A stretch of 22,163 bases of DNA from Ruditapes philippinarum (Eukaryota): the NCBI RefSeq assembly GCF_026571515.1, contig NW_026851538.1:1-22163 (forward strand), written 5' to 3'. A program made the position numbers and the translations under genes. The notes under the pieces were generated by a model. That model was not told the DNA's origin and made no database searches. It saw only the letters and a program-made list of their open reading frames with translations. Position 1 is the stretch's first letter, and each line of letters opens with the position of its first letter. Positions 3,290-21,550 of this stretch are shown here, piece after piece.

Positions 3290-4067
3290 TGAAAATAACA
3301 AAGGGCAATAACTGAAAAATAATGCAGAGTAGGTTATCATTCTTGTGTGCTGCATTCCTCCTCAGTAAAATCTATCCACCTATGAAGTTTCAAGTTGATA
3401 CCTCAAATACTTTTTGAGAAAAAAATTGAATTGAAAAATTAAGTATGAAAAATAACAAAGGGCAATAACTCAAAAATAATACAGGGTAGAGTTATCATTC
3501 TTAAGCACTGCACTCCTCCTCAATGGGATCCATCCACCTTTGAAGTTTCAAGTTGATACCTCAAATACTTTTTGAGATAAGCTCTGGACAAAATAGCATG
3601 AAAAAAAACAAAGGGCAATAACTCAAAAATTGTATAGGAAAGAGTTATCATTCTTGCGCACAACATACCTCCTCAATAAGATCTATCCACCTATGACATT
3701 TCATGTTGATATCTCAAACACTTTTTGAGTTATGCTCCACTCAGGTGAAAAATTAGGTATGAAAAATAACAAAGGGCAATAACTCAAAAATTATGAAAGG
3801 TAGAGTTATCATTCTTGTGCACTGCACACCTCCTTAGTGAGATCTATGCACCTATGAAGTTTCATGTTAATATCTCATAGGCTTTTGGAGTTATGCTCTG
3901 GACAAAAATCAATTTTGAAAAATAACAAAGGGCAATAACTCAAAAATCATGCAAGATAGAGTTATCATTCTTGTGCACTGCACTCCTCCTCAATGAGGTC
4001 TATCCACCTATGAAGTTTCAAGTTGATAACTCAAATACTTTTAGAGATATGCTCCGGACAAAAATGT
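3290..4067 (+). repeat. Tandem array of about 5 copies of a ~145-166-bp unit. Unit: ..aaaataacaaagggcaataactcaaaaat..agagttatcattcttgtgcactgcactcctcctcaatg..tatccacctatgaagtttcaagttgatacctcaaatactttttgag... BIV160/Cg170-type bivalve satellite family, subfamily 1.
   Basis: The motif acaaagggcaataact recurs at about 3298, 3464, 3608, 3769 and 3925. The similarity to the bivalve satellite is from memory only, not from a search. Confidence 0.85.
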
Positions 4068-5014: not shown

Positions 5015-6957
5015 ATGTTGCATTTCCTTTCAATGTGGGTTGGCCATTGATGAAGTTTAATTGAATTACTCTGTAATAAGTCCAGAAAGACAAAGAAAAG
5101 GAACAAAGGGCAATAACTCTATAAGTCTGTATTTTGTCAAATGGAGTTATTGTTCTTGTGCACTGCACTTCCTCTTAATATCCTTGACAACTGTATGAAG
5201 TTGTATTGAATTCCAAACAGTAGTTTTCAAGTTATGCTCTGGACAAAGAAAAGTAACAAAGGGCAATAACTCTGTAATTAGTCAAGATAGAGTTATGGTT
5301 CTTGTGCACTGCACTTTCTCTTCAATGTGCTTGACCATTGTTTGAAGTTATATTATTTCCAACCATTAGTCTTCAAGTATGGTCCAGACAAAAAAAGGCA
5401 ATGGAAAAGTAACAAAGGGCAATAACTCTGTAATTACTTTTAGATAGAGTTATGGTATTTTGTGCACTGCACTTCCCCTTATTGTGTTTGACAATTGTAT
5501 GAAGTTGTTTTGAATTCCAACTAGTTGTTTTCAAGTTTATGCCTCGGACAAGGAAAAGTAACAAAGGGCAATAACTCTGTATTAGTCAAGATAGAGTTAT
5601 TGGTTCTTATGCACTTGCACTTCCTCTCAATGTGCTTGACCATTGTTATGTAGTTATATTGACATTCCAACCATTAGTCTTCAAGTTATGGTCCGGACAA
5701 AAAAGGAATAGGGAAAGTAACAAAGGGCAATAACTCTGTAATTACTTTAGATAGAAATTATGGTTCTTGTGCACTGCACTTCCCCTTTTGTTGTTTGACA
5801 ATTGTGCGAAGTTTGTTTTGAAAATTCCTAACAGTAGTTTTCAAGTTATGCACCGGACGGAAAAAGTAACAAAGGGGGCAATTACTCTGTAATTAGTCAA
5901 GATAGAGTTATGGTTCTTGTGCACTGCACTTCCTCTCAATGTGCTTGACCATTGTATGTAGTTATATTGAATTCAAACCATTAGTCTTCAAGTTATGGTC
6001 CGGACAAAAAAGGCAATGGAAAGTCAAAAACTCTGTTTAATAACTTTAGATAAAGAGTTATGGTTCTTATGCACCTGCACTTCCCCTTATTGTGTTTGAC
6101 CAATTGTAATGAAGTTGTTTTTTGAATTCCAACCAGTTAGTTTTCAAGTTTATGACCCGGACAAGGAAAAAGTAACAAAAGGCAATAACTCTTGTAATTA
6201 GTCAAGATAGAGTTATGGTTCTTGTGCACTGCAACTTCCTATCTATGTGCTTGACCATTGTATGTAGTTATATTGAATTCAAACTATTAGTCTTCAAGTT
6301 ATGGTCCGGACAAAAAAAAGCAATTGGAAAAGCAACAAAAGAGCAATAACTCTGTAAATTTACTTTAGATAGAGTTATGGTATTTGTGCACTGCACTTCC
6401 CCTTATTGTGTTTGGGCAATTGTATGAAGTTGTTTTGTATTCCAACCAGTAGTTTTCAAAGTTATGCCCCGGACAAAGGTGGAAAAGTTAACAAAGGGCA
6501 ATAACTCTGTAATTAGTCAAGATAGAGTTTTATGGTTCTTGTGCACTGCACTTTCCTCTCAATGTGCTTGACCATTGTATGTAGTTATATTGAATTCCAA
6601 CCATTAGTCTTTCAAGTTATGGTCCGGACAAAACAAAAGCAATGGAAAAGCAACAAAAGGGCAATAACTTGTAATTACTTTAGATAGAGATATTTGGTTC
6701 TTGTGCACTCCACTTCCCTTATTGTGTTTGACAATTTGTATGAAACGTTTTGAATTCCAACCAGTTGTTTTCAAGTTATGCCCCGGACAAGGAAAAGTAA
6801 CAAAAGGGCAATAACTCTGTAATTAGTCAAGATAGAGTTATGGTTCTTATGCACTGCACTTCCTCTCAATGTGCTTGACCATTGGTATGTAGTTATATTT
6901 GAATTCCAACCATTAGTCTTCAAAGTTATGCTTCCCGGACAAGGAAAATGCAAACGG
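5015..6957 (+). repeat. Tandem array of about 12 monomers of ~155 bp, organised as a higher-order repeat of two alternating variants. Type A: ..attagtcaagatagagttatggttcttgtgcactgcacttcctctcaatgtgcttgaccattgtatgtagttatattgaattccaaccattagtcttcaagttatggtccggac. Type B: ..attactttagatagagttatggt.tttgtgcactgcacttccccttattgtgtttgacaattgtatgaagttgttttgaattccaaccagtagttttcaagttatgccccggac. Same satellite family as 3290-4067, but a distinct subfamily.
   Basis: acaaagggcaataact-like anchors at about 5102, 5257, 5411, 5563, 5717, 5868, 6030, 6175, 6335, 6495, 6650 and 6805. A/B alternation read by eye. Confidence 0.85.
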
Positions 6958-7149: not shown

Positions 7150-7905
7150 ATGCATAAAAAATTGTCCCAAAAAAGGCACAAAATTTTCAGTAGTTTATGG
7201 AAAATACCAGCTTACAAGCAAAAACCTTTACCAAGAATTTCTAAGCCGCAAAAAAGAGGCATAATTATGAAAAAAAATAAGGGTTATGGGACTTGTGCCA
7301 ATCATGTTAAATAATCACTGAGAAACAAGTGTGTAAAATTCCAATCCATTCCCTTTCAGTATTTATGGAGATACCAGCTTACTCGCATAAACTTAACCAA
7401 GAAATTTTCTAAGTCGAAAAAGGGGCATACTTATGCAAAAAAGCAAATCAGAGTTATGAAACTTGTGTCAATCATGTTAGATAATCACAGAGAACAAGTG
7501 TGTGAAGTTTCAATCCATTCCCTTCAGCTAGTTATGGAGATACAACCTTACACGCAAAAAACTTAACCAAGAATTTCTAAGTCGAAAAAAGGGGCATAAT
7601 TATGCAAAAAAAAGCAATTCAAAGTTATGGGACTTGCGCATATCATGTTAGATAATCACAGAGAACAAGTTTGGTGAAGATTCAATCTATTTCCTTCAGT
7701 AGTTATGGAAATACCACCATACACCGCATAAACTTAACAAAGAATTTCTAAGTCGAAAAAGGGGCATAATTATGCAAAATAGCAAAATCAGAGTTATGGG
7801 GACTTGTGCCAATCATGTTAGATAATCACAGAAAACAAGTGTGTGAAGTTTCAAATCCATTCCCTTCAGTAGGTAAAAAGAATACCAGCTTACACGCTTA
7901 CATTT
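7150..7905 (+). repeat. Tandem repeat, about 4.3 copies of a ~160-180-bp unit (..cagtagttatggaaataccagcttacacgcataaacttaaccaagaatttctaagtcgaaaaaggggcataattatgcaaaa..agttatgggacttgtgccaatcatgttagataatcacagagaacaagtgtgtgaagtttcaatccattcccttcag).
   Basis: Unit starts at about 7188, 7366, 7525, 7698 and 7868. Confidence 0.75.
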
Positions 7906-8179: not shown

Positions 8180-9180
8180 GACAGATAAGAACAAAAAACC
8201 ATTCAAGAGCCAATTTGCTTGACTAGAATTTATGGAAAGAGAAGGGGGGGCTAATTCCTTAAAAACTGCTTGCAGAAATTACCTGCCCTTGATAAATAAA
8301 CAACTTAACCCCTTTCCCTCATGAGTTATATTGGTCGAAACAAGAGGGCCATGAAATGCCCTGAGGTCGCTCAACCTGTTTATAGGCCCAAGACGAAGAC
8401 GGTTGAATCCACTAGGTCACCCTTGAGAATATTTCAGGGGAGGCTTATAAAAATGGCCTTTTTCATTGAAAAGCCCCCTGGGTTACAAGTTAAAACTGAT
8501 TAATGAAAACTATTGAAAAAATTTGCCCTTAAATACTAATCAAAACTTGGGCACACCATGTTGAACTGGACCATTGCCTTTGTAAACGACTGCTTCAGTT
8601 TAAATTTCCGTTTACCAAAGCAACGAGGGGACGTCCTCAAAATACCTAAATTCCCATATTTTGCCTTCGGATTTTTTTCCATCAAGTGCTGAACTTCTAA
8701 GGGGTTTGAGATAGAGTCAAAGGCTTTTCAGCCCTTGGTTACACATTACCCTTTTTGATCGATCTGGGATCATTTTCAACCTCTCACAAGTACAAAATTT
8801 CTTTTTGGGCGATGGGAAAGGGGATTGCCCCCCCCCTTCAAACCCCCCAAACAGAAGGGGCACCACATCCCCCCTTCCTGGCAACCCCCTGATGTATCTT
8901 TTTTGGATGGGGGAACCGCTCCGGAAAAAATTGCTTCACTTTTCTTAAGCAACATATTCTCCAACGAAAACATATAATTTGGGGCCCCCCAAATAGGACA
9001 TTTTCTCACTATTTGAGGCCTAAAAGGGGGGGGGGTCGAAAGTGTGTTTGTTTTCGCGTATATTATAGGTAAAGGGTTAAGTGAAATAGTGATCTTGATT
9101 TTGTTTGTTTTTATTGTTTTTTTTTTGTTTTTGTTTTTTTCAATAAAATTAGAAAAAAATAACAAGACCTGTCAAAAGGA
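8180..9180. other. Homopolymer-stuttered, G/C-run-rich block (gggggggg, ccccccccc, gggggggggg). Part of it is a noisy copy of clean sequence nearby: 8224-8290 vs 9241-9300, and both relate to the ggggcataattatgcaaaa motif of the 7150-7905 repeat.
   Basis: Direct reading. gaaggggggggctaattccttaaaaactgcttgcagaaattacctgccc vs aaaaggggaccataattttgcaaaactgcttggcagacccttacctagcc. Confidence 0.4.
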
Positions 9181-10020
9181 CAACAGGTTCCTCGTTTTTT
9201 TTTCAGTGCTGGGATAGTGTAATTTAAAATTCACAATATAAAAAGGGGACCATAATTTTGCAAAACTGCTTGGCAGACCCTTACCTAGCCTTAATAGTGA
9301 ACTTGTTTTCAAGTTTTGAACATTAATTGTTCTTTTTATATAGATAAAGGCAAAACACTCTAAATAAAAAAACCGGAGATGGTTAACAAAATATTGCTTT
9401 CCAGGATTATCTTCCCTTTAGAAATGGCCATTTCAAAATTTTACCAGGTGAAAAAGAAGTAGAAGGCAAGAAATGAATGAAGAAGACTGTTTTTTATTTT
9501 TGCGACTTACTTATCTTTTTTGGAAGTTGTAAAATCTTTTGGAATTCTGGACTCCCAATGGTAGTAACTCGTTTCTGCCAACACTTTTTGATTGTCAAGT
9601 AACACTTATTCATCTCTTTCCTCTTTCTTGCAGATCGTGTAGTGCTTTTTTCAAGACGTGTCTGTAGCTAAAAAATTTAAATAAAGTTAATAGAAACATG
9701 ATTTTCCCTGTTAGTTTCAGTCCCATTTATATATTTAGGAAAATACGTTGGGAGGACTGAAACAAGGTCGGATAAGACAAGGGAGTCGTTGAAAATCAGG
9801 GGGTGGCTAAGGCAGTCTTGACTGTAACTTGTAAATTTTTTCTTAATCAGCTAATAATTCACCCTTAACAGATAAACGAATAATTAGCTTTGCTTGATAG
9901 TAACACCAAGATCCTTGATAACAAAGAACTTTAAACAAATGGGTCATGATGGCCCTGAAATCACTCACATGAATTTTAAAAACTCTTCCATGACAAGGAA
10001 CAAGTAAAATTGTAAACTAT

Positions 10021-11000
10021 AAAACAAAAGCAGATATAAAATCTAAATCTTAAACTGATATCACAAAGTTCATATTTGGTATCACAGAAATAGTGCATGT
10101 GTAAAAACAATACTGGTTGCTATTGCAAAGGGAAAACAACAGTTGCCACAGATGTGTACAATAGGGAAAAATCAATGACCCCATGGGGCAAATTTTCACC
10201 AAAGAGCTTTTATTTAAACAACTTGGTAAACTCTTATGAGACAATGTATCATGCTTAATATCTAAGCTCTATCTATTTGGTTTCTTTAAAAGAAGATTAT
10301 TTAAAGTTTTTACTATATACATATAAGGAAATCAATGACAGCCCAGGACAGGGCCAATATTGACCCAAGTCTTTTTATTTGAACAATTTACTTGGTAAAT
10401 ATTCACTAGAAAATGTTTCATTTTTAATATCAAAGCTCTAGCTATTTGGGTTTTCTCAAAACAAGATTTTATTTTTTTTTTCTATGTGCATATAACGAAA
10501 ATCAACTACCCACTTAGGCAGGGCCAATTTTGACCCCAGAAAATTTATTTGAACAAACTTGGTAAACACTCACTAGAAAATGTTATATCCTTAATATCTA
10601 AGCTCTAGCTCTTTTTTAAAAGATTTTTTTTTTACTATATGATGATATACAAATTAGGAGAATAAATTACCCCCCCCCCCCCCCCTCCCCGGGGCAGTGC
10701 CAATTTTTTACCCTAGAGCTTTTATTAAATAAACTTGGTACAATAAATTTAGTAAATGTCTCAATTAGTGATTGCTCTAGCACCTAGCTCCTTTGGTTTA
10801 AAAAAATAAAATAAATAAATTTTACTATATACATATAAGGAAAATCAATGACTCCCAGGGCAGGGCCAATTTTGACCCAAGGCCTTTTATTTGAACAAAC
10901 TTGGTAGACACTCACTTGAAAAAGTTTCATGCCTAATATCTAAGCTCTAGCTATTTGTGTATTTTTTCTGAAGAAGATTTTTTTTAGTTTTTCTTATATA
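10021..11000 (+). repeat. A ~130-bp header (aagcagatataaaatctaaatcttaaactgat..gtgcatgtgtaaaaaca.tactgg..cagatgtgtacaat) followed by about 5 tandem copies of a ~170-185-bp unit (tatatacatataaggaaaatcaatgac..cagggccaattttgacccaag..ttatttgaacaaacttggtagacactcac.agaaaa.gtttcatgcttaatatctaagctctagctatttg). One copy carries a poly-C run (10668-10690).
   Basis: Copies at about 10160, 10330, 10500, 10650 and 10840. Confidence 0.7.
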
Positions 11001-12869: not shown

Positions 12870-14262
12870 AGTCAAAATGTGATCACCAGAGTGTTCACAA
12901 GGTTTTTCCATATTTGGGCGGCGTGACCTAGTTTTTGACCCCAGGTGACCCATATTTGTCCTTCACCTAGAAATTATCAAAACAAACTTTCAGAGCAATT
13001 TCAAGTACTTTTTATTAAAACAGTAGTCACTAGAGTGTTAACAAGATTTTATATTTTTAGCTCCTGTGACCTAGTTTTTTCATCCAAGATTACCCATGTT
13101 CGAACTCATTCGAGCAATAAAGCTAGACAAGCGTCCTAAAAATCCTGAAAAAGTTTAATGATGATTGAGGCAAAAATGTGACGTTAGAGTGTTAACGAAC
13201 AAATGTGGACGGACGACAGTCGACGGACGACTGACATTTAACAATCCTAAAACCTCACCCTGAGCAAACTGTAAAATCTAAGCTTTGAGCATTATAGGTT
13301 GAAACAAGATGAAATAAATGTGTTTTCCTAGGATATAAGTCTACATAAACAAAAGGGCCCTGATTATGAAGGCTCAATCCCATATTATTTGGGCTGACCT
13401 GTGTGACCTAGTTTTTGACCCCAGATGATCCATATATACAATGTACTTGACCTCAAAATTTCATTTAAACAACCTTTCTGAACAATTTTCCTGGATATTT
13501 GGATCAAAAAACAAAAGCTTCTATAGTGTGTTTACAAGGTTTTTCCATAATATTGCTGTGTTGCCTTGGTTTTTAACACTAGTTGACCAATATTTGAGAT
13601 TGACCTAGAAATCACCAATACAACCTGTCTGACTGATTCCTAGATATTTGAATCATAACAGTAGTATCTAGAGTGTAAACAAGGTTTTTCCAGATATTGG
13701 TCTGTGTGACCTACTTTCTGACAAAAAGTGACCCATATTTAAACTTGACCTAGAAATTATCATAACAACCTTTCTGACCAATTTCTAGGATATCTGGACT
13801 GGAACAGTAGCCCCTAGAGTGTTTACAAGGTTTTCCAATACTTATGCTGTGTGACCTAGTTTTTTGACCCAAGGTTGAACCCATGTTCTTACTTTGCCTA
13901 GAAATCACCATAACAACTTTATTGACCAATTTCCAGGATATTTGGTTCAAAACAATAGCCTCTAGACTAGCAAGGTTTTTTCATATCTGGGCAGTGTGAC
14001 CTAGTTTTTGACTATCGATGACCTATATTCCAATTGAGATGGAAATGATATAAACAACCTTTCTGACCAATTTCAAGGATATTTGGATCAACATTGTAGC
14101 CTCTAGAGTGTAAACAAGGTTTTTCCATATTTGGACAGTGTAACCTAGTTTTTGACCCAAGGTAACCCATATTCAAACTTGACCTTGAAATTATCATACC
14201 ATCCTTCCTGACCATTTTCCATGACATTCTATGATAGCCCCTAGACAAGTGTGTACAAAGTT
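12870..14262 (+). repeat. Tandem array of about 9 copies of a ~148-bp unit (..agagtgtttacaaggtttttccatatttgg.c.gtgtgacctagtttttgaccccaggtgacccatatttg..cttgacctagaaattatcataacaacctttctgaccaatttc.aggatatttggatcaaaacagtagcc.ctagagtg..). Interrupted at 13140-13380.
   Basis: gtgacctagttttt anchors at about 12924, 13067, 13401, 13560, 13706, 13852, 14000 and 14143. The small minus-strand ORFs 13750-13950 and 14012-14248 are periodic repeat artefacts. Confidence 0.8.
13205..13245 (+). repeat. Degenerate (GGAC)-type microsatellite relic inside the array: gaacaaatgtggacggacgacagtcgacggacgactgac. Resembles 4050-4110.
   Basis: Direct comparison with ggacaaaaatgtcggatggaaggacggacgg at 4055-4085. Confidence 0.45.
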
Positions 14263-14346
14263 TTATGTTGATATCTCTTATTGTTTCAGAGTAATGTCCC
14301 GGACAAAGTTCAAAGTGTAAAAAGGGAACCTTTGTTGCAATATACC

Positions 14347-14548
14347 TGTTAAGTTAAATCCAACACCTTATTAATGCTAACGCCAACACTAAATAAATAT
14401 ATTTCACTTTAATGTATGGTCATAATCAACAAAGTAACTTCATTATTCCAATCCTAACGTTGCTAAGCCAGTTGATGACGTCGTGACGTTATGACGTCAT
14501 AATGACGTTATATAAAGTTTACTAAACAAAAATAAGATGAAATTAACA
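14347..14548 (-). repeat. 3' LTR of the copia element (202 bp). Contains a TGACGT(C/T)(A/G) cluster (tgatgacgtcgtgacgttatgacgtcataatgacgtta; four CRE-like half or full sites, one exact TGACGTCA) and a palindromic TATA element (tatataaag).
   Basis: Direct reading. Confidence 0.75.
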
Positions 14549-14556
14549 TTAATTAT

Positions 14557-14580
14557 ACTTTCTTTCTTTTCTTCTTTTCT
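14557..14580 (-). promoter_or_regulatory. Polypurine tract (minus strand reads agaaaagaagaaaagaaagaaagt), 8 nt upstream of the 3' LTR.
   Basis: Plus strand 14557-14580 is actttctttcttttcttcttttct. Confidence 0.6.
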
Positions 14581-14664
14581 GTGATGTTTTGAGTCATTAA
14601 AAAAACTGATGTTTTGAGTCATTAAAAAAAATGTAAGATATAAAAATGTTAAAATTCTACAAGT

Positions 14665-14973
14665 CTATATAAAATCTTTTGAAATTGTTCCTTCTTGTAT
14701 TACACACAGCAGATCATATCCGGATGCCCCACGCTTAGTCATACAGTCAGCCAAATGATGTTTCCCTGGGCACCATCGAATTTCTTTGACTTCATTTCTG
14801 GACAAGGATTCGCTGATTGCAGCTATATCTACACGAAGACGCTTGTCATCTACTAGCTTGGTTGAATTCACAGCTTCTATTACACTTCTATTGTCCACAT
14901 AAGCAATTATTGGTATTGTGTGATTGGGTATCCTTAGAGCGTTTTCGATCATTTTGTCTGTAATAATATCCAC
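14665..14973 (-). CDS. Copia RNase H C-terminal segment (102 aa; YVDNRSVIEAV .. VDIAAISE .. HHLADCMTK). Overlaps the RT ORF in a different frame, which is the second frameshift.
   Basis: ORF track, plus the copia-typical C-terminal AD..TK motif. Confidence 0.6.
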   Translation of the reverse strand: MDIITDKMIENALRIPNHTIPIIAYVDNRSVIEAVNSTKLVDDKRLRVDIAAISESLSRNEVKEIRWCPGKHHLADCMTKRGASGYDLLCVIQEGTISKDFI

Positions 14974-15964
14974 ATTCTAATCCTTCTTGTAAACTGAGAG
15001 CTTCAGCAGCAATTGTTGATCGTACTACCCTTTTTATTTTGTTGGTATGCCAGAAAAGTGGACAACATTTTCCAGAAGTGTCCATTAACCATACTATATA
15101 AGCCGCAGTGCTCCCTGTTCCAGAATTTATGTTGCACAAAGATGCATCTGTGAAGACTGCAATCTTCCAATCACCTACAAAGTTGCTCAATTGTGGGAAT
15201 CTTATAAAAGACTTGAAGTTTTTCAATCTGTTCACTGCTTTGATCGCCTGAGATAGATCACTCATTGTAGCTTCCTTGAGTTTAGTGCTCAAGTCTATCA
15301 ACTCAAATGCCATATCGGGCCTTGTTCCTTGCACTACCCAGTTAATCTGACCAATGATTTTCCTGAAAAGAGTCTGTTCTTCAGATGTTAATACTTCCTG
15401 TTTATTCTGGACTCTCTTTGTGTCAATCTGTCTGCTCTCTATGTTTTCCACATATCTAGATTGGTCCAGAATAATTGCATTGCTCTCCTGAGAAATCCTG
15501 AAACCAATATAATCAAACTGTCCTTTTTCAATTTTTCCTGCAACAAATCGTTTTCGTAATTTAGTCAGGACCTTCTCCAAACATTCATCACCAGCATGAA
15601 GAAAATCATCAACATGACAACAAATAATGCCGTTAAGCTTGTCTCCAGTGTGCAGAAAGAACATTGCTGGATCCATCTCTGATATATGACACCCTAATCT
15701 AATTAACTCGTCTTTCACACTTAGATAGAATTGTCTTGCTCCGTCTTTGAGGCCATAAAGTCCATGTTTAAGTTTCCAAATTATTCCAGCGATAGTGTCA
15801 CTTTCCTTTGGAGGTTTAATGTAGACTTCCCTCCGAATTTCTTTTCCCTGTAGAAACGCCGACTTTATATCTGTGGTTTTTACAATCCAATTATTTACAG
15901 CTGCAAGTGCAAGAAATGTTCTAAGTGTTCCTTTTCCCACTGTTGGACTGTCACTTTGCATCAC
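14888..15964 (-). CDS. Copia reverse transcriptase and the N-terminal part of RNase H (358 aa). Motifs: DIKSAFLQG, YGLKDGARQFY, CCHVDDFLHAGDE (YXDD box), QGTRPDMAF, IAVFTDAS. Different frame from both neighbouring pol ORFs.
   Basis: Motifs in the ORF track. 15964 and 18272 are in different frames. Confidence 0.8.
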   Translation of the reverse strand: MMQSDSPTVGKGTLRTFLALAAVNNWIVKTTDIKSAFLQGKEIRREVYIKPPKESDTIAGIIWKLKHGLYGLKDGARQFYLSVKDELIRLGCHISEMDPAMFFLHTGDKLNGIICCHVDDFLHAGDECLEKVLTKLRKRFVAGKIEKGQFDYIGFRISQESNAIILDQSRYVENIESRQIDTKRVQNKQEVLTSEEQTLFRKIIGQINWVVQGTRPDMAFELIDLSTKLKEATMSDLSQAIKAVNRLKNFKSFIRFPQLSNFVGDWKIAVFTDASLCNINSGTGSTAAYIVWLMDTSGKCCPLFWHTNKIKRVVRSTIAAEALSLQEGLECGYYYRQNDRKRSKDTQSHNTNNCLCGQ

Positions 15965-15974
15965 ATATTCTTCC

Positions 15975-18272
15975 TCAAATCCGCGTACAACAAGTCGAGC
16001 CTTTGTTTGACCATTTTTTGTGAGTTATCACCCATCTTGTTGATAAAGTTACCTGACCATAATCTTGAACTTCTTCATATGTGCCAAAGTGTTGCAGCTT
16101 CTGAAGTTCACAAATTTTAGCAGATGTGACTTCATCATCAGCACAAGTCTGTTTCATTACCAAATTAACCTCATTTGTTAACATTTTCCATTGAACTGCC
16201 TCCAGATTAATACTCTTCTTCTCTTTGCTGATATCTTCCTCTATATTATACCAAAACTTGTTTCTGCCTGTTGCTTTTCCAGCCCTTCCTAGTATTTTTG
16301 CTTGTATCCACTGATCTGTATCCTGTGCTCTATATTGTATGTTGTCATTTGCCTTCAATGTCCTTTCTTCAGGTGGAATATTTTGAATGTTGTTTTCCAA
16401 ACTAGCTGATGATCTATCTGACATGTTTGACTGCAAGTTCTTAAATGGATCTGAGGATGGTATGTCCTCGTTTATGGTCTGCATACTTGTCTGATCTGAG
16501 GTTTGCTGGTCAGCTAATGTGCCCTCATTAGCATTGCTTCTTTCTTCTTCCAGACTTTCATAACTGTTTGCCTCACGATTATCAGAACTCATATAATCAT
16601 TTACCCTCTGCAGCCTATTAGGCGATACTCGCACAAACACTGCTCCATGTCTAACAAACACCACTTTTCCATCTTGAAATACCACCTTTCCAGGTCCAAG
16701 CCAACGCTCTTTTCCCTCTCGCTTGTAGAAAACATTATCACCATGTTCAAAAACTTGTTCAGAAGCCCTTACTTTATTACGTAGAGCTCTCCTTATTCTT
16801 TCGTCAGCTTCCGACTGAATGAATGCTCTCCGAGCAGCATGCAAAACATTCAAATGCCTTGCAAATTCCTCACTGCTGGTGGTCCCTTGTAATGCAGGCA
16901 AGTTTTCACTCATAATATTGGGAATATTGGGGTTCTGCCCAAAAACAAGCTGATGACTGCTAAAACCATTCCACATCTGTAAAGAATTTCTTGCCATATT
17001 CGCCCATGATAGTAACGTCTGCAAGTCTACTTTCCCACAATCTGCCTGTAACTTAATCAGCATCATATCTGTTATAGCATGCACTCTCTCACATAAACCA
17101 TTCTGAAATGGACTTTGACCAGATGTTGTGCATAATTTAATGTTCAGTATTGACGTGATCTCTCTTACTTCATCTGAATTGAATTCACCACCGTTGTCAG
17201 TCATTAATGAGCCCATCATGCCAAACTTACCTACCCATTCCCTCATCAGTGCATCTATAATCTTTTCTGGCTTCTTTCTGTTGATAAACGTTGACACCGT
17301 ATATCTGGACCACATGTCTATAATGTGTAAAATCCAGCAGCCGTTCCATTGCTTAAGATCCATCGCAACTTTTTCATTGAACTTGGAAGCCATAGGCATA
17401 CCTACGACAGGCCTTGATGGAGTTTTTGCATACATCTTGCAAAGTTCACAATTGTTAGTAATGAGATCAAGAGTTTCCTCAAATTCTTCTCTCCAGATAA
17501 CTGCATCTTTCATAAGTGCTGACAGCCGTTTCTTAGGTGGGTGTGCAAATTGCCTGTGCAATTTCACAAATGTTTTGTATCTCTCATTTTTGCTTAAATC
17601 ATCAAAGTTTACAGCACAAACACTTTCTACAGGTACCTCTACCGTCTTATCTATCGGAATACAGTAATGACCTGATGTTGTCAAATTTAAAGCCACCTCT
17701 TTTCCCATAATGCTAGCTGTGTCGTTTTCTAGATCCATTTTTATAGCAGCCCTCTTCATTGCTGTCCGAGACAATAACAGGGGAATGTCCGACTCCACAA
17801 CATCTGTTTTGATGAAAACATCTTTGCCAGCAATCACTGCAGGTATACAGTATTCTCCTTTTGATGTTAGGCATGTCCCACCACCAAACTTGAAAACTCT
17901 CTGACTATCTAACTGTGTTACTCTCTGTTTATCTCCTACATCTAATGACTGTATATAGTTATTTATCCAGTTTTTACCACACACTGTACTGCTGCAAGCA
18001 CTATCAAGAACAGCACAATTTCGAGCATCTACACCCAAACGCTGAATCTCATCCTTATTGTAACCTGTAAACAATACTGCATGTTCCTCTTCAACAGCAT
18101 TCACTTTCTTCATGTTTTCCCAGCTATGGGGGCATGCCTGTAGCAGATGCCTATATGAACCACAAGACTTGCAGGTAAGCGTTCTTCCATCTGGACCAAT
18201 AGGATTGATGTTCTTTGCAAGACCTTTTCTGTGACTGTCTTGAGCAATGTCTGAACGCTGAAACTCTTTCAT
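15975..18272 (-). CDS. Copia gag(C-term)-protease-integrase ORF (765 aa). CCHC zinc knuckle CKSCGSYRHLLQAC. Aspartic protease VLDSACSST. Integrase HHCC (HRQFAH..CELC) and DDE core (HIIDMWSRY .. TDNGGEF .. CERVH). An acidic/Ser-rich linker, then the start of RT (TLSTRWVITHKK). Frameshifted relative to the downstream RT ORF.
   Basis: Motifs read from the supplied translation. Domain order PR before IN before RT is diagnostic of Ty1/copia. Confidence 0.8.
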   Translation of the reverse strand: MKEFQRSDIAQDSHRKGLAKNINPIGPDGRTLTCKSCGSYRHLLQACPHSWENMKKVNAVEEEHAVLFTGYNKDEIQRLGVDARNCAVLDSACSSTVCGKNWINNYIQSLDVGDKQRVTQLDSQRVFKFGGGTCLTSKGEYCIPAVIAGKDVFIKTDVVESDIPLLLSRTAMKRAAIKMDLENDTASIMGKEVALNLTTSGHYCIPIDKTVEVPVESVCAVNFDDLSKNERYKTFVKLHRQFAHPPKKRLSALMKDAVIWREEFEETLDLITNNCELCKMYAKTPSRPVVGMPMASKFNEKVAMDLKQWNGCWILHIIDMWSRYTVSTFINRKKPEKIIDALMREWVGKFGMMGSLMTDNGGEFNSDEVREITSILNIKLCTTSGQSPFQNGLCERVHAITDMMLIKLQADCGKVDLQTLLSWANMARNSLQMWNGFSSHQLVFGQNPNIPNIMSENLPALQGTTSSEEFARHLNVLHAARRAFIQSEADERIRRALRNKVRASEQVFEHGDNVFYKREGKERWLGPGKVVFQDGKVVFVRHGAVFVRVSPNRLQRVNDYMSSDNREANSYESLEEERSNANEGTLADQQTSDQTSMQTINEDIPSSDPFKNLQSNMSDRSSASLENNIQNIPPEERTLKANDNIQYRAQDTDQWIQAKILGRAGKATGRNKFWYNIEEDISKEKKSINLEAVQWKMLTNEVNLVMKQTCADDEVTSAKICELQKLQHFGTYEEVQDYGQVTLSTRWVITHKKWSNKGSTCCTRI

Positions 18273-18283
18273 GCCTGATTTTC

Positions 18284-18523
18284 CTAATTTCCCCTTTTCC
18301 AGTTTCCTCTGCTGCCTCCATTATAATTCCCTTGTTGAATTCTTAATTTGGAGTAACCTGCAGCAAGTAGCGCCTCTTCATTTGCTGCAAGAAAAGCAGG
18401 TTCTAGTTTGATACTTGAGCTGCCACTTGACATATTCATGTCATTACCCTTAAACTTTTTCAGTGACTTCTTAGCCTGTTCGTACAATGTAGCTTTTTCA
18501 TCATAATTCACCACCAGTCCCAA
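18284..18523 (-). CDS. Short gag-like ORF fragment (79 aa) upstream of the main gag-pol ORF. The N-terminal part of gag is presumably lost in the stuttered block 18530-19105.
   Basis: ORF track; its position relative to the zinc-knuckle ORF. No recognisable motif of its own. Confidence 0.35.
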   Translation of the reverse strand: MGLVVNYDEKATLYEQAKKSLKKFKGNDMNMSSGSSSIKLEPAFLAANEEALLAAGYSKLRIQQGNYNGGSRGNWKRGN

Positions 18524-18529
18524 AGACTA

Positions 18530-19105
18530 GCACCGCCCTCCCCTTGGAAATGTTCCGCCCTCAGAAAGTAGTTTTAAAAGCCAAAAAATTCAGCAGGCAA
18601 ATGTCCCTACTTTTCCCTTTTAATTTCCCTATCTTTTAATCAAAACGTACCATATTTATTTAAAAATTTGGGTTGGAGAAACTTAATAAAATCCTTTCCA
18701 AAAAAACCTAATTTTTTTAAATGTCCCGTTAAAAACCAAACCCCTTTTTGGAAAATGTGGTCCCCGAAATAAAGAAAGTCCCAAACCAAACATCATTTTT
18801 AAATCCCCGTTTGTATTGGTTTTAAAAAATTTCAGTATTTTAGATTCATCATCCCCTTGGGGAATGATAAAGCCCAAAATTAAAACCCCCTTTGTCTTTT
18901 TTAAAATTCTGGAATTTTCCCCCCATGCCAAAAAATTTCCCGTTTTTAAAAACCTTAAAACTTCCCTTCCCCTTTTTTTAGTTTTGGAGGATTTATCCCC
19001 GGTGCCCCTATTAAACCCCTTTAAATGTTAAAAAATACCCAAAATGTTAGAAAATAACAAATGTCTAACTTTTGTAAAAAAACCTGGAATAGTTTCCCCT
19101 CCCCT
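18530..19105. other. Homopolymer-stuttered block inside the copia element, between the 5' LTR and the recognisable gag (e.g. tccccgaaataaagaaagtcccaaaccaaac, ccccttttttt, ttttttt). It should contain the PBS and the gag N-terminus but is unreadable as such.
   Basis: Direct reading. Same doubled-base texture as 1-340 and 8180-9180. Confidence 0.4.
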
Positions 19106-19289
19106 TGTTAATTTAAATAACATATTAATCTAGAACACCTAAAAAATATTTTTCATTAATGAGGTATAATAAAAGTAACTTCATTATTCCAATCCTAACG
19201 TTGCTAAGCCAGTTGATGACGTCGTGACGTTATGACGTCATAATGACGTTATATAAAGTTTACTAAATAAAAATAAGATGAAATTAACA
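19106..19289 (-). repeat. 5' LTR of the copia element (184 bp). The right 118 bp is near-identical to the 3' LTR. The left part is diverged or stuttered (ccttgttaatttaaataacatattaatctagaacacctaaaaaatatttttcattaatgaggtataat vs cctgttaagttaaatccaacaccttattaatgctaacgccaacactaaataaatatatttcactttaatgtatggtcataat).
   Basis: Direct alignment by eye. Confidence 0.7.
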
Positions 19290-19750
19290 ATACCCCCATC
19301 ACAGAAGTTTTTGACAGAGATGTGGGCATTATAAATAAGCATATAGGAAATATGCATTGGGCATCTGGAAAATATCTGGATATTTTATCATCTCTAGTGA
19401 TTTTTTATCTGATTTTTCACCCCTATGTGTGACCTTGACCTTAGCCGCAGGGACCTAAATTTTGTGCGCGACACTCCGCTTTACAATGGTGAACATTTGT
19501 GCCCGGTTATATTGAAATCCCTCTATGCATGTAAATTTTTGCTCCGGACAAGCCGTTTTAACAATGATCCTAAAAAACACTTGAAAACTTCAAAGCATGC
19601 TTCAAACAACGACTAAAATCTAAAAGATAATTTGGTTTTCCTAATTGAATTAAGGGTGTCATAAAATAAAGGAAAGAGGCACTGATGGCAATTACGTATT
19701 AGCATTAAAATCTTAATGAGTAAAATACATAATAACCAGTATTGAACATT

Positions 19751-19780: not shown

Positions 19781-21550
19781 ATGGCTGTGCCTGGTAAAAA
19801 GTCATCTCAGAAACTGTCATCTACACTATCTCAAGGTGGTGCTGAAGATTTTGACATTTTCTGTGAAATATGCAACCAAGATGACATCAGACTACCTGCC
19901 TTTGGTTACTGTGTCGATTGTGAGGAACATTTATGTCAAACTTGCTTTTACACTCACAGACGACCAAAACCACTACGTCATCACCAACTTCTAGATAAAG
20001 ATCACATGCCACATAAACAAAACCTCCATAAGTCATTAAAATCTACTTCTGGTGGAAAGACAGCTGATTTGACAAAGTCTTGTCCTAAACATACAAATGA
20101 AATTATCAAGTTTTTTTGTCATGACCATAACGCACTTATATGCAGTGTTTGTGTGACCCTTCAACATACACCAACATCCTGTCAAGTGGACTACATACCT
20201 GATATATCAGGACAGATTTTAGACAGCATGGAGTTCAAAGAAACTCTAAAAGATATTGACAAATTAACAGACAAATGCTGCCAGATTACAAAAGATCTGA
20301 AACATAGAGTTGCTAAATCAACAACTTCTCTGAAAGATGCTATAGTAGAAATAGAAAACTTTAGAAAAGAGATAAACAAAAGATTAGATGAACTAGAAAA
20401 GGAAGTTAAAGATACTGCAACAAAAATCCAACATGACAACAACAACAAGTTGAAAACAACAGAAACAACATGTGATGACATCAACAAATCACTCCAAGCA
20501 TCAGCTGATACTCTAAAACATCTCAACACCAACAAGAAAACTGACCAACTGTTTACTGAATTGAAAATAGCTCAGCAACTGATATTACACAATGAAAATA
20601 TAATTACACAACTACCAACAACCAATGATGTTGATGAATACACTTTTGAACCAAATCAAGCAATCAAAAAACTCCTTCAGAATGAGAAATCATTAGGAAC
20701 ATTGAGAACAAAGGAACCAAAGAAACTACCTCCACCAATGGATAAGGCTGCATTACCAATGAAAATGTCTACCCCTAGAAATATCAATGTTAAAACTTCC
20801 TCAGATATTGATGAATGCTGGATTACTGGAATAACTGTCTCTCCTCGGAACAAATTATTTGCAGCAGATTACCAAAATGAATCAATTAAAATGATAGACA
20901 TAAAAAGTGGAGCAATCAAACAATTACTGCTTGAATCAAACCCCTGGGATATCACCATGGTGACCAGAGATACACTTGCTGTTACATTACCAGTCATTAA
21001 AACAATACAGTTCATTTCCTTCTCCTCAAACTCTCTCTCATTGAAAAACAAACAGAAAGTAGATGGATCTTGCTACGGAATAAGCCATCATCAGGGGAAA
21101 CTTGCAGTTACCTTTATATATCCTGGTGAACTCAAAATCATGGACTTGAGAGGTAATATTAAAACTACAGTTGAGAAATATTCCAATGGCGACAGTATTT
21201 TCAGTGGCCCTTCGCATGTCATCACAAACAGCAATTCAATCTATATAACTGATAGAGGCCAAAAGGAAGTTACATGGTTTAACTGGCAGGGAGAGATGAT
21301 AGGAAGGAATGTAGACATTAAAAGTCCAAGGGGTATTTCACTGTTAGATGACGGGTCCCTCTTTGTGAGTGATGGCGGGAATAATTGTATATATAGAGTA
21401 AGTGGTGACTTTAAAGATAAGACAACTATACTGGAGGGTGTAGAGGATCCTCGAGTTGTATGTTGGTGTGCTGAGACCAGTACACTTTATTTTAGTACAC
21501 ACAGCAACACAGAGAGTGACAATATTATCAAAATATATAAAATGATGTAG
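19781..21550 (+). CDS. Uninterrupted 589-aa ORF for a RING-less tripartite-motif-like protein. B-box1 (aa 28-67: C-x2-C-x11-C-x2-C-x4-C-x2-C-x3-H-x7-H). B-box2 (aa 100-133: C-x2-H-x8-C-x2-H-x4-C-x2-C-x4-H-x4-C). K/E/L-rich coiled-coil region (about aa 150-300). C-terminal NHL-repeat beta-propeller-like region (about aa 340-589, repeated ..I.V...G.I.V.D.GN..I..F.. blocks). TRIM2/3/71-like B-box/CC/NHL family.
   Basis: Cys/His spacing read directly from the translation. Long ORF with coding-like composition. The family assignment is by domain pattern, not by a search. Confidence 0.72.
   Translation: MAVPGKKSSQKLSSTLSQGGAEDFDIFCEICNQDDIRLPAFGYCVDCEEHLCQTCFYTHRRPKPLRHHQLLDKDHMPHKQNLHKSLKSTSGGKTADLTKSCPKHTNEIIKFFCHDHNALICSVCVTLQHTPTSCQVDYIPDISGQILDSMEFKETLKDIDKLTDKCCQITKDLKHRVAKSTTSLKDAIVEIENFRKEINKRLDELEKEVKDTATKIQHDNNNKLKTTETTCDDINKSLQASADTLKHLNTNKKTDQLFTELKIAQQLILHNENIITQLPTTNDVDEYTFEPNQAIKKLLQNEKSLGTLRTKEPKKLPPPMDKAALPMKMSTPRNINVKTSSDIDECWITGITVSPRNKLFAADYQNESIKMIDIKSGAIKQLLLESNPWDITMVTRDTLAVTLPVIKTIQFISFSSNSLSLKNKQKVDGSCYGISHHQGKLAVTFIYPGELKIMDLRGNIKTTVEKYSNGDSIFSGPSHVITNSNSIYITDRGQKEVTWFNWQGEMIGRNVDIKSPRGISLLDDGSLFVSDGGNNCIYRVSGDFKDKTTILEGVEDPRVVCWCAETSTLYFSTHSNTESDNIIKIYKMM

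Follow-up and report, generated by a model that had tools for sequence, protein, structure and literature searches.

Within the Ty1/copia retrotransposons, the GalEa clade reportedly goes back to Terrat et al. 2008. Its metazoan members combine short LTRs (5'-TGT...CA-3'), a 5-bp TSD and a length of ~4.5-5 kb, and the motifs quoted as shared are CX2CX4HX4C, HHCC, DD35E, KARLVA, YVDD, TRPDI and ADxxTK; a protease motif DTG(C/A) is quoted as shared too, but not as clade-defining. CX2CX4HX4C, TRPD and ADxxTK are given as GalEa motifs in PMC5445492, and the PBS TGGTAGCAGAGC is described as strictly conserved right behind the 5' LTR (PMC5445492, PMC3587641). Named members are GalEa1, Zeco1 and CoRex1 (PMC3587641, PMC5445492, PMC6238403), the last of which measures 4949 bp and has 217-bp LTRs starting with TGTTA (PMC3587641). 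Among the copia elements of 18 bivalve species, only GalEa was found (PMC6238403).

Architecture of the element

The locus described here lies in a window of 22,163 nt, by which we mean the whole stretch of DNA that was analysed. On its minus strand, at 14347-19289, there is a full-length LTR retrotransposon of 4943 bp with the gene order gag(CCHC)-PR-INT-RT-RNaseH. Judging from the sequence, we consider this to be one copy of a GalEa-like Ty1/copia element, full-length, with about 645 corrupted nucleotides at its 5' end and three single-nucleotide shifts, and we assign this reading a probability of roughly 0.85. The reference used throughout is a related element on ENA contig ERZ26693861 ctg109343 (L001), which encodes the protein P0001 in an uninterrupted ORF of 1435 codons. 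The features are as follows, with the basis of each in brackets.

14342-14346, unstranded: first TSD copy, ATACC (read directly, script check)
14347-14548, minus: 3' LTR in element sense, 202 bp, clean, TGTTAA...TTAACA (LTR pair alignment)
14549-14580, minus: 9-nt spacer TATAATTAA (14549-14557) and PPT AGAAAAGAAGAAAAGAAAGAAAG (14558-14580) (equal layout in L001)
14582-14630, minus: 25-bp unit, present twice in tandem within the 3' untranslated region (TRF, repeat search)
14665-14952, minus: third pol frame, C-terminal part of RNase H, with AYVDN 14887-14904, ADxxTK 14734-14754 and stop codon 14665-14667 (motifs)
14952-14955, minus: third frameshift (comparison with L001)
14953-16015, minus: second pol frame, RT with KARLVV 15986-16015, HVDD 15599-15622 and TRPDM 15311-15328, then the N-terminal part of RNase H with D 15137-15154 and E 14993-15010 (Pfam RVT_2, motifs)
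16014-16022, minus: second frameshift (one extra base)
16017-18290, minus: first pol frame, C-terminal gag linker, CCHC knuckle CKSCGSYRHLLQAC 18132-18173, protease LDSAC 17994-18008, and integrase with HH 17541-17558, CC 17439-17450, D 17307-17324, D 17181-17204 and E 17079-17096 (ORF list, Pfam rve, motifs)
18288-18294, minus: first frameshift, in gag upstream of the zinc knuckle (comparison with L001)
18290-18526, minus: clean central part of gag (LVVNYDEKATLYEQAKKSLKKFKG...) (alignment to P0001 residues ~165-240)
18527-19171, minus: stuttered block, comprising the N-terminus of gag (~18527-19008), leader plus PBS (~19009-19105) and, in the 5' LTR, the U5 side (19106-19171) (run statistics, protein-to-DNA alignment, run-compressed comparison, LTR alignment)
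19106-19289, minus: 5' LTR in element sense, 184 bp, outer 118 nt clean and inner 65 nt corrupted (LTR alignment)
19290-19294, unstranded: second TSD copy, ATACC (read directly, script check)

An earlier note on this DNA had proposed a complete copia element at 14342-19294. Its existence and its bounds at the TSD hold, but the inner part of the 5' LTR, the PBS and the start of gag are corrupted. The 5-bp ATACC duplication that the note had claimed was found again at both flanks, where a match of this length has a chance expectation of ~0.0015, and the claimed TG..CA ends were recovered as TGTTAA...TTAACA on both LTRs. The 118-bp LTR segment with one mismatch was confirmed as well: 14431-14548 and 19172-19289 are identical at 117 of 118 positions, the sole difference being 14527 C / 19268 T. 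By contrast, the termini cannot be called intact, as the note had it, since the inner 84 nt of the LTR correspond to just 65 nt in the 5' copy, nor does the PPT abut the 3' LTR, being a 23-nt purine run set 9 nt away from it. The 3' LTR also contains four ACGTCA sites, among them the CRE palindrome TGACGTCA at 14492-14499 (palindrome count 3, against 0.06 expected). The perfect TSD, the 117/118 identity of the clean LTR part and the 1283 repaired codons without a stop support a fairly recent insertion, in agreement with the young age that had been proposed.

The coding content places the element in Ty1/copia, the assignment originally made: RVT_2 is matched at 79.6 bits by the fragment and at 99.2 bits by the repaired protein (residues 824-1026; cut-off 31.6 bits), the integrase precedes the RT, and the TSD is 5 bp long. 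On the ORF fragment, rve reaches 31.7 bits, just under its cut-off of 32.6 bits; in the repaired protein it lies at residues 382-470, upstream of RVT_2. The pieces of gag matched no Pfam family. The CCHC knuckle, the integrase HHCC and DD35E, HVDD and the RNase H D-E-D were all found, and the ORFs bear out the division of pol into three reading frames. Once repaired, the product is 1283 aa long and stop-free, and it matches P0001 (1435 aa) at 72% identity across 100% of its length.

As for the host, the bivalve-like character claimed for the genome agrees both with the relatives of the polyprotein, the named ones being from Mercenaria, Mytilus and Crassostrea, and with a flanking B-box/NHL gene, which matches a Ruditapes philippinarum protein at 86% identity. 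We take the host to be a venerid clam. The B-box/NHL ORF spans 1.77 kb (589 codons) and has no frameshift. The element is located upstream of a TRIM71-like gene, at a distance of 491 bp. Neither Rfam nor a tRNA scan had any hit in the window.

Probable GalEa affinity and the closest relatives

The size, the LTR ends and the motifs fit GalEa, an assignment that rests on architecture, on motifs and on the reported absence of other copia clades from bivalves. The element is 4943 bp long, as against 4949 bp in CoRex1, with LTRs of 202 rather than 217 bp that likewise begin with TGTTA; the clade's short TGT...CA repeats, 5-bp duplication and overall length thus have their counterparts here (202 bp TGTTAA...CA, 5 bp and 4943 bp). 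The motif set is represented by CKSCGSYRHLLQAC, H..H/C..C, D-D-E, KARLVV, HVDD, TRPDM and ADCMTK. It departs from the quoted consensus in having HVDD for YVDD and in KARLVV and TRPDM, each one residue off, and the protease reads LDSAC rather than DTG(C/A), both here (17994-18008) and in all close relatives. The single gag-pol frame of GalEa is interrupted in the assembled copy by three frameshifts and a corrupted N-terminus, whereas the relatives have single ORFs of 1410-1440 codons; after repair, 1283 codons read through without a stop. The PBS TGGTAGCAGAGC is unreadable in this copy, but it is carried by L001, 2 nt behind the LTR, and by L003, upstream of gag.

With Drosophila copia and yeast Ty1 the element shares the PR-INT-RT-RNaseH order, an RVT_2-type RT, the 5-bp TSD and, to judge from its relatives, priming by initiator tRNA-Met. 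It is distant from both in sequence, and compared with these two, GalEa-like elements are of smaller size, with LTRs that are much shorter. Moreover, gag and pol of Ty1 are separated by a programmed +1 frameshift, and Drosophila copia primes from an internal tRNA fragment.

The L001 element is ~4942 bp long with 202-bp LTRs, the termini TGTTAATTTCA...TTAACA, a 5-bp TSD (CTGAC), a 9-nt spacer behind its PPT, and a conserved cluster of ACGTCA/TGACGTCA sites in the LTR; unlike the copy described here, it has a readable PBS, an undamaged 5' LTR and an unbroken ORF. At ~75-79% nucleotide identity in the coding sequence, L001 is a member of a different family. A search of 5.8 billion proteins gave 72-73% identity for the best match, and a protein-guided scan for a copy of the same family returned only L002 (79% identity) and L003 (68%). 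BLAST of the element against the 22-kb window for other copies or solo LTRs matched only its own two LTRs, an exact LTR 26-mer had zero matches in JGI metagenome contigs, and the reconstructed empty site had no convincing paralogue in the window. For the Ruditapes paralogues P0121 and P0122, as for the B-box/NHL protein of the window itself, no encoding contig is on record. Since no copy of the same family was found, no clean version of the 5' region can be recovered.

The stuttered 5' block and the three frameshifts

The earlier note had observed that the gag N-terminus and the PBS fall in a stuttered block, and this region could be mapped to 18527-19171. The block is ~645 nt long and covers ~165 gag codons; it holds no readable start codon, and near 19090-19105, a region inside it, TGGTAGCAGAGC had no match within 3 mismatches. 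The fraction of bases identical to the preceding one is 0.53 in 18559-19125 as against a window median of 0.32. Despite this, the gag N-terminus is still encoded in the right order: a frameshift-tolerant alignment of the block to P0001 residues 5-170 scores 173, compared with 41.6 +/- 6.2 for shuffles (z = 21). Decoding it, however, takes 18 single-base shifts and 13 codon-level gaps over 166 codons, whereas elsewhere 3 shifts suffice for 1283 codons. With homopolymers compressed, 234 runs remain in the block and 309 in the homologous stretch of L001 (raw lengths 488 and 459 nt), while clean control regions give 345-365 against 337-345. About a quarter of the base transitions in the block have been lost and the remaining runs are stretched. 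Pure homopolymer-length noise was considered and dismissed, since whole runs are gone (82 compressed positions absent, 7 extra). The agreement between the LTRs, 117/118 in the outer part, breaks off abruptly at 19171/19172 (Fisher p = 3.7e-9). Inward of this boundary, where the 3' copy has 84 nt and the 5' copy 65 nt, the 5' LTR shows 3 mismatches, with 19 bases deleted and 1 inserted. This amounts to 23 differences in 84 nt (~27%), 20 of which are indel bases. Similar stuttered blocks occur in unrelated sequence outside the element, at 17-370 and 8802-9254. One of these outside blocks is a noisy copy of the directly adjoining sequence.

Because the boundary inside the LTR is sharp, the differences are dominated by indels, base transitions have been lost and similar blocks occur elsewhere, the block at 18527-19171 is very probably a sequencing or assembly artefact, for example an uncorrected read segment. 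Sequence error, which the earlier note had suspected behind the frameshifts, is strongly supported as the cause of the block (boundary at Fisher p = 4e-9, indels, lost transitions, similar blocks). The length of the block is near expectation, with 583 nt from the LTR end to clean gag compared with 598 nt in L001, and this is unlike a simple raw long-read error profile. Roughly kept length and gene order would also suit the idea that the block is real DNA, either a very old and decayed 5' segment, taken over from a diverged element through recombination or gene conversion, or the outcome of local mutation of the slippage type. Yet an old diverged segment would show mainly substitutions, not a set of LTR differences made up almost entirely of indel bases. 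In addition, ~25% of the base transitions are missing and the leftover runs are lengthened, the block begins abruptly within an LTR, and its texture recurs in two unrelated places in 22 kb. We regard a real origin as very improbable. Very improbable, too, is the proposition that all the stuttered blocks are real and arose by a local mutational process which removes bases and lengthens adjacent runs across several hundred bp, and which here would have silenced the promoter-proximal part of a young element; a milder variant would have the true element wholly intact and mobile at present.

Whether the artefact extends to the rest of gag-pol is a separate question. Only two frameshifts had been claimed, at ~15964-15975 and ~14888-14973; these coordinates are ORF ends, the true sites being 16014-16022 and 14952-14955, and a third shift, in gag at 18288-18294, had been overlooked. 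Each of the three shifts outside the block is mended by one base at a short homopolymer. In gag, a base is missing from an A3/G4 run (A4 in L001), and its addition joins ...GNWKRG to KLGKSG.... At the second site, removal of a surplus base from an A6 run or of the preceding C joins ...RWVIT(H/T)K to NGQTKARLVV.... At the third, the minus strand has A4 where L001 has A3, and taking out one A joins ...ECGYYYRQ to MIENAL.... All three repaired junctions align gap-free to eight relatives. The gag shift might be taken for a Ty1-like programmed ribosomal frameshift dividing gag from pol, as separate gag and pol ORFs exist in some GalEa elements, such as CoRex1 (PMC3587641). However, it lies upstream of the CCHC knuckle and hence within gag itself, a single ORF runs uninterrupted through the homologous site in the closest intact relatives (P0001, P0002, P0005 and P0008), and L001 has A4 in place of the A3 found here. 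We therefore dismissed programmed frameshifting, which is extremely improbable at this site.

The shifts may be errors akin to those of the block, or they may be genuine early decay. On one hand, the block may be artefactual and the three homopolymer frameshifts genuine, making this a recent copy already inactivated by small indels. One LTR mismatch in 118 nt corresponds to ~0.4% change per copy, which by our estimate predicts that the 3.85 kb of internal sequence would have ~16 substitutions and a few indels, and three 1-nt indels without a stop codon match this expectation. Since the nearby B-box/NHL ORF has no frameshift, the assembly outside the blocks is not obviously error-prone and the frameshifts could be real; database relatives are also frameshifted or truncated, for example P0004, whose C-terminus is out of frame. 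All three, however, are +/-1 shifts at or beside short homopolymers, the typical type of consensus error, poorly sequenced stretches are demonstrably present in the window, and two of the three are insertions, although deletions are usually commoner than insertions among genuine small indels. We see genuine decay as not far short of an even bet. On the other hand, every defect may be technical, the true element being intact and potentially active, with identical LTRs and a normal PBS. Three 1-nt repairs suffice for a stop-free stretch of 1283 codons with complete catalytic motifs, the perfect TSD and the 117/118 identity of the clean LTR part point the same way, and the low-quality blocks show the assembly to be locally unreliable. 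Nevertheless, three real indels are equally expected given the LTR divergence, and neither the window nor the searched collections yielded a second copy, a transcript or an intact paralogue. An intact element is a sizeable possibility, at somewhat less than even odds.

Expected activity and significance

In elements of this family, the steps of expression, priming and integration are well established. A GalEa-like copia such as the one described here would have its genomic RNA, encoding a single gag-PR-INT-RT-RNaseH polyprotein, driven by the 5' LTR. Initiator tRNA-Met would anneal to the PBS just 3' of the 5' LTR and prime minus-strand DNA, the plus strand would be primed from the polypurine tract, and insertion of the DNA copy by the integrase would produce the 5-bp duplication. 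The earlier note's description of the element as potentially active goes too far for the copy as assembled, which lacks both a start codon and a recognisable PBS and carries at least 21 frameshifts.

What is new is one further GalEa-like copia family in bivalves, where the dominance of GalEa was already known; no new mechanism is implied. The corrupted stretches, several hundred bases long, are of a kind that annotators would take for a decaying TE, a PBS that has been lost or a gag cut short, and calls on age or activity that involve 17-370, 8802-9254 and 18527-19171 are provisional until read-level checks. Should the copy prove intact, a clam lineage of commercial importance would have a candidate active copia close to an immune-type TRIM/NHL gene, which would be of modest interest.

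A recent Ty1/copia insertion

Two direct repeats, delimited by aligning the repeat pair, enclose long ORFs on the minus strand, and the element therefore reads from right to left over a total of 4943 bp. Both repeats (LTRs) start with TGTTAA and end with TTAACA. On re-inspection, the ATACC duplication reported in the earlier note is present on both sides (14342-14346 and 19290-19294); given the base composition, a 5-bp agreement of the flanks would arise by chance with a probability of about 0.0015. The coding features were read from a three-frame translation of the minus strand.

Features of the element (LTRs from the repeat pair alignment, the rest from translation)
14347-14548, minus: left direct repeat, 3′ LTR, 202 bp
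19106-19289, minus: right direct repeat, 5′ LTR, 184 bp
from 18526 downward, minus: gag segment
18132-18173, minus: CCHC knuckle, CKSCGSYRHLLQAC
17994-18008, minus: protease motif LDSAC
17558-17079, minus: integrase with H..H, C..C, D, D and E residues
15986-16015, minus: RT motif KARLVV
15599-15622, minus: RT motif HVDD
15328-14734, minus: RNase H (TRPDM, D, E, D, ADCMTK)
14665-14667, minus: stop codon

The position of the integrase upstream of a copia-type RT, the TG..CA ends of the LTRs and the 5-bp TSD jointly assign the element to Ty1/copia, so that its earlier description as a real element of copia identity holds. Pfam RVT_2 scores 79.6 bits for the fragment and 99.2 bits for the repaired protein; rve scores 31.7 bits, slightly below the 32.6-bit cut-off and about equal to the score of P0001, an intact single-ORF relative. 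The outer 118 nt of the LTR pair contain, as counted before, a single difference (14527 C, 19268 T), and the copy is a recent, GalEa-like insertion.

A polypurine tract usually abuts the 3′ LTR, and this one had been described as doing so; instead, a 9-nt AT-rich spacer, TATAATTAA, intervenes (run and spacer together at 14549-14580). The locus encoding P0001, L001, likewise has a polypurine run and a 9-nt AT-rich spacer, TACAATGAA, before its 3′ LTR (L001 7238-7265), the arrangement being kept across both families. Between the polypurine run and the pol stop codon, the 3′ untranslated region holds a perfect 25-bp tandem duplication (two copies of TGATGTTTTGAGTCATTAAAAAAAC, 14582-14630). Within the LTR, four ACGTCA sites are clustered, including the CRE palindrome TGACGTCA (14459-14512 and 19200-19253), which occurs three times in the window against 0.06 expected, the third copy lying at 579-586. 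Because this cluster and the subsequent CTTAGCAACGT are also found in the LTR of L001 (2585-2640), a 72%-identical family, the cluster is likely a promoter or enhancer module.

The corrupted 5′ end

At its 5′ end the element passes into a stuttered block (about 18527-19171). In 18601-19000, a fraction of 0.53-0.57 of the bases repeat the base before them, compared with 0.20-0.33 in the clean part of the element and a window median of 0.32; runs have a mean length of 2.04 in the block and of 1.37 in the clean part. Even so, residues 1-165 of P0001 could be aligned with 19105-18527 by a protein-to-DNA method that tolerates frameshifts; the alignment scored 173, against 41.6 ± 6.2 for 100 shuffles (z = 21), and was colinear from INPP... 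through ...LVLTG. Its cost over 166 codons was 16 extra-base and two missing-base events, nine extra codons and four residue gaps, whereas the remaining 1283 codons needed only three events. Since the alignment is colinear and high-scoring, the block is not random sequence; judged by homology, it is a heavily corrupted gag N-terminus, leader and U5 side of the 5′ LTR, which supports the earlier placement of the gag N-terminus and PBS region here. The block has no ATG at the expected gag start, and the PBS TGGTAGCAGAGC has no match within three mismatches in its expected region, which lies inside the block. Just downstream of the expected PBS, minus-strand 19080-19098 reads CTATTCCAGG, and its reverse complement, CCTGGAATAG, occurs at the U5 end of the L001 LTR (L001 2708-2720); in corrupted sequence, this could reflect either U5-leader pairing or coincidence.

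The LTRs of a single insertion age together. Here, their identity breaks at 19171/19172, with 117 of 118 positions matching on the outer side and 23 differences over the inner 84 nt (Fisher p = 3.7e-9); 20 of the 23 are indel bases, only three being mismatches. After homopolymer compression, the block retains 234 runs versus 309 in the homologous L001 stretch (82 missing, seven extra), the raw lengths being 488 and 459 nt, while in three clean control stretches the run counts are 345-365 and 337-345, respectively. By this comparison, about a quarter of the block's bases are dropped and their neighbours stretched. A like texture recurs outside the element, at 17-370 and 8802-9254 (same-base fractions 0.52 and 0.47, median 0.32). 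The first of these blocks, in its aligned part (28-420), is a noisy copy of the adjoining 435-800, suggesting that the end of a low-quality read was left unmerged. We know of no mutational process that would yield such a pattern with equally sharp edges; it does arise in low-quality read segments, such as unpolished or gap-filling sequence and untrimmed read tails. The abrupt LTR boundary, the dominance of indels, the lost transitions and the same texture elsewhere thus argue that the block is a sequence artefact rather than decay, with a probability of roughly 0.9.

Three frameshifts in the polyprotein

A search of the repaired polyprotein against 5.8 billion proteins returned single-ORF relatives by the hundred, 1410-1440 residues long; P0001 ranked first (72% identity, 100% of the query covered). 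We mapped the shift sites by aligning the window to eight protein relatives and to L001 DNA.

Frameshift sites and junctions after repair (hyphen marks the junction)
18288-18294: shift 1, in gag upstream of the zinc knuckle; A3/G4 run one base short (A4 in L001); GNWKRG-KLGKSG
16014-16022: shift 2; one base too many, in the A6 run or the preceding C; RWVIT(H/T)K-NGQTKARLVV
14952-14955: shift 3; A4 (A3 in L001); ECGYYYRQ-MIENAL

The earlier claim of a frameshifted pol stands insofar as the shifts are present in the assembly, but there are three rather than two, the additional one in gag, and the positions then proposed (15964-15975 and 14888-14973) are ORF ends. Three 1-nt repairs give 1283 stop-free codons, with junctions gapless against all aligned relatives. 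A programmed gag-pol frameshift was considered for shift 1 and rejected, as the site lies inside gag and relatives read through it.

The three frameshifts may be sequence errors: each is a ±1 change at or beside a short homopolymer, two of the three are insertions, and parts of the assembly are demonstrably unreliable. They may equally be genuine, as one LTR mismatch per 118 nt leads to a rough forecast, for 3.85 kb, of about 16 substitutions, about 0.7 stop codons and a few indels, with which the three indels and absence of stops are consistent; moreover, the neighbouring 589-codon host ORF carries no frameshift. As for other copies, there was no second one across the window, no protein above 73% identity among the 5.8 billion and no match to an LTR 26-mer in JGI metagenomes, and a protein-guided scan for family copies returned nothing but relatives, 79% and 68% identical.

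Genomic surroundings and lineage

The 5′ LTR lies 491 bp upstream of, and divergent from, an intact, intronless 589-aa B-box/NHL (TRIM71-like) ORF (19781-21550, plus strand), a member of a very large venerid gene family. Its best matches belong to a large Ruditapes philippinarum family (up to 86% identity), with Mercenaria mercenaria next, and named relatives of the element polyprotein come from Mercenaria, Mytilus and Crassostrea. The host is accordingly a venerid clam or a near relation of one, and the sequence had rightly been called bivalve-like. On the other side, a 145-bp tandem array (13466-14228) ends 114 bp before the element. This and the arrays at 3292-4065, 5121-6948, 7186-7897 and 10209-10614 have units of about 145-170 bp, with doubles of 290-340 bp; several share a CCCGGACAAAG...AAAGGG motif, also found immediately left of the insertion site (14299-14325).

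Metazoan GalEa elements measure up to 4949 bp and have short LTRs bordered by TGT...CA (TGTTA in CoRex1 and CoRex2), one large ORF, a 5-bp TSD, the motifs CX2CX4HX4C, HHCC/DD35E, KARLVA, YVDD, TRPDI and ADxxTK, and a strictly conserved PBS, TGGTAGCAGAGC, directly after the 5′ LTR (PMC3587641, PMC5445492). In a survey of 18 bivalve species, GalEa was found and Hydra-clade copia was not (PMC6238403). Our element agrees with them in its size, its LTRs and TSD and the majority of the motifs, although KARLVV, HVDD and TRPDM are each one residue off and the protease has DSAC instead of DTG(C/A). The exact PBS is present in L001 and L003, the two relatives that still have a leader. L001 is intact, about 4942 bp long and of the same architecture, with 202-bp LTRs at 98% identity and the TSD CTGAC. 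Taken together, architecture, motifs, the PBS of relatives and the bivalve survey make GalEa membership probable.

The element is thus a further member of a well-known kind of retrotransposon, and its chief value is as a caution on local assembly quality.
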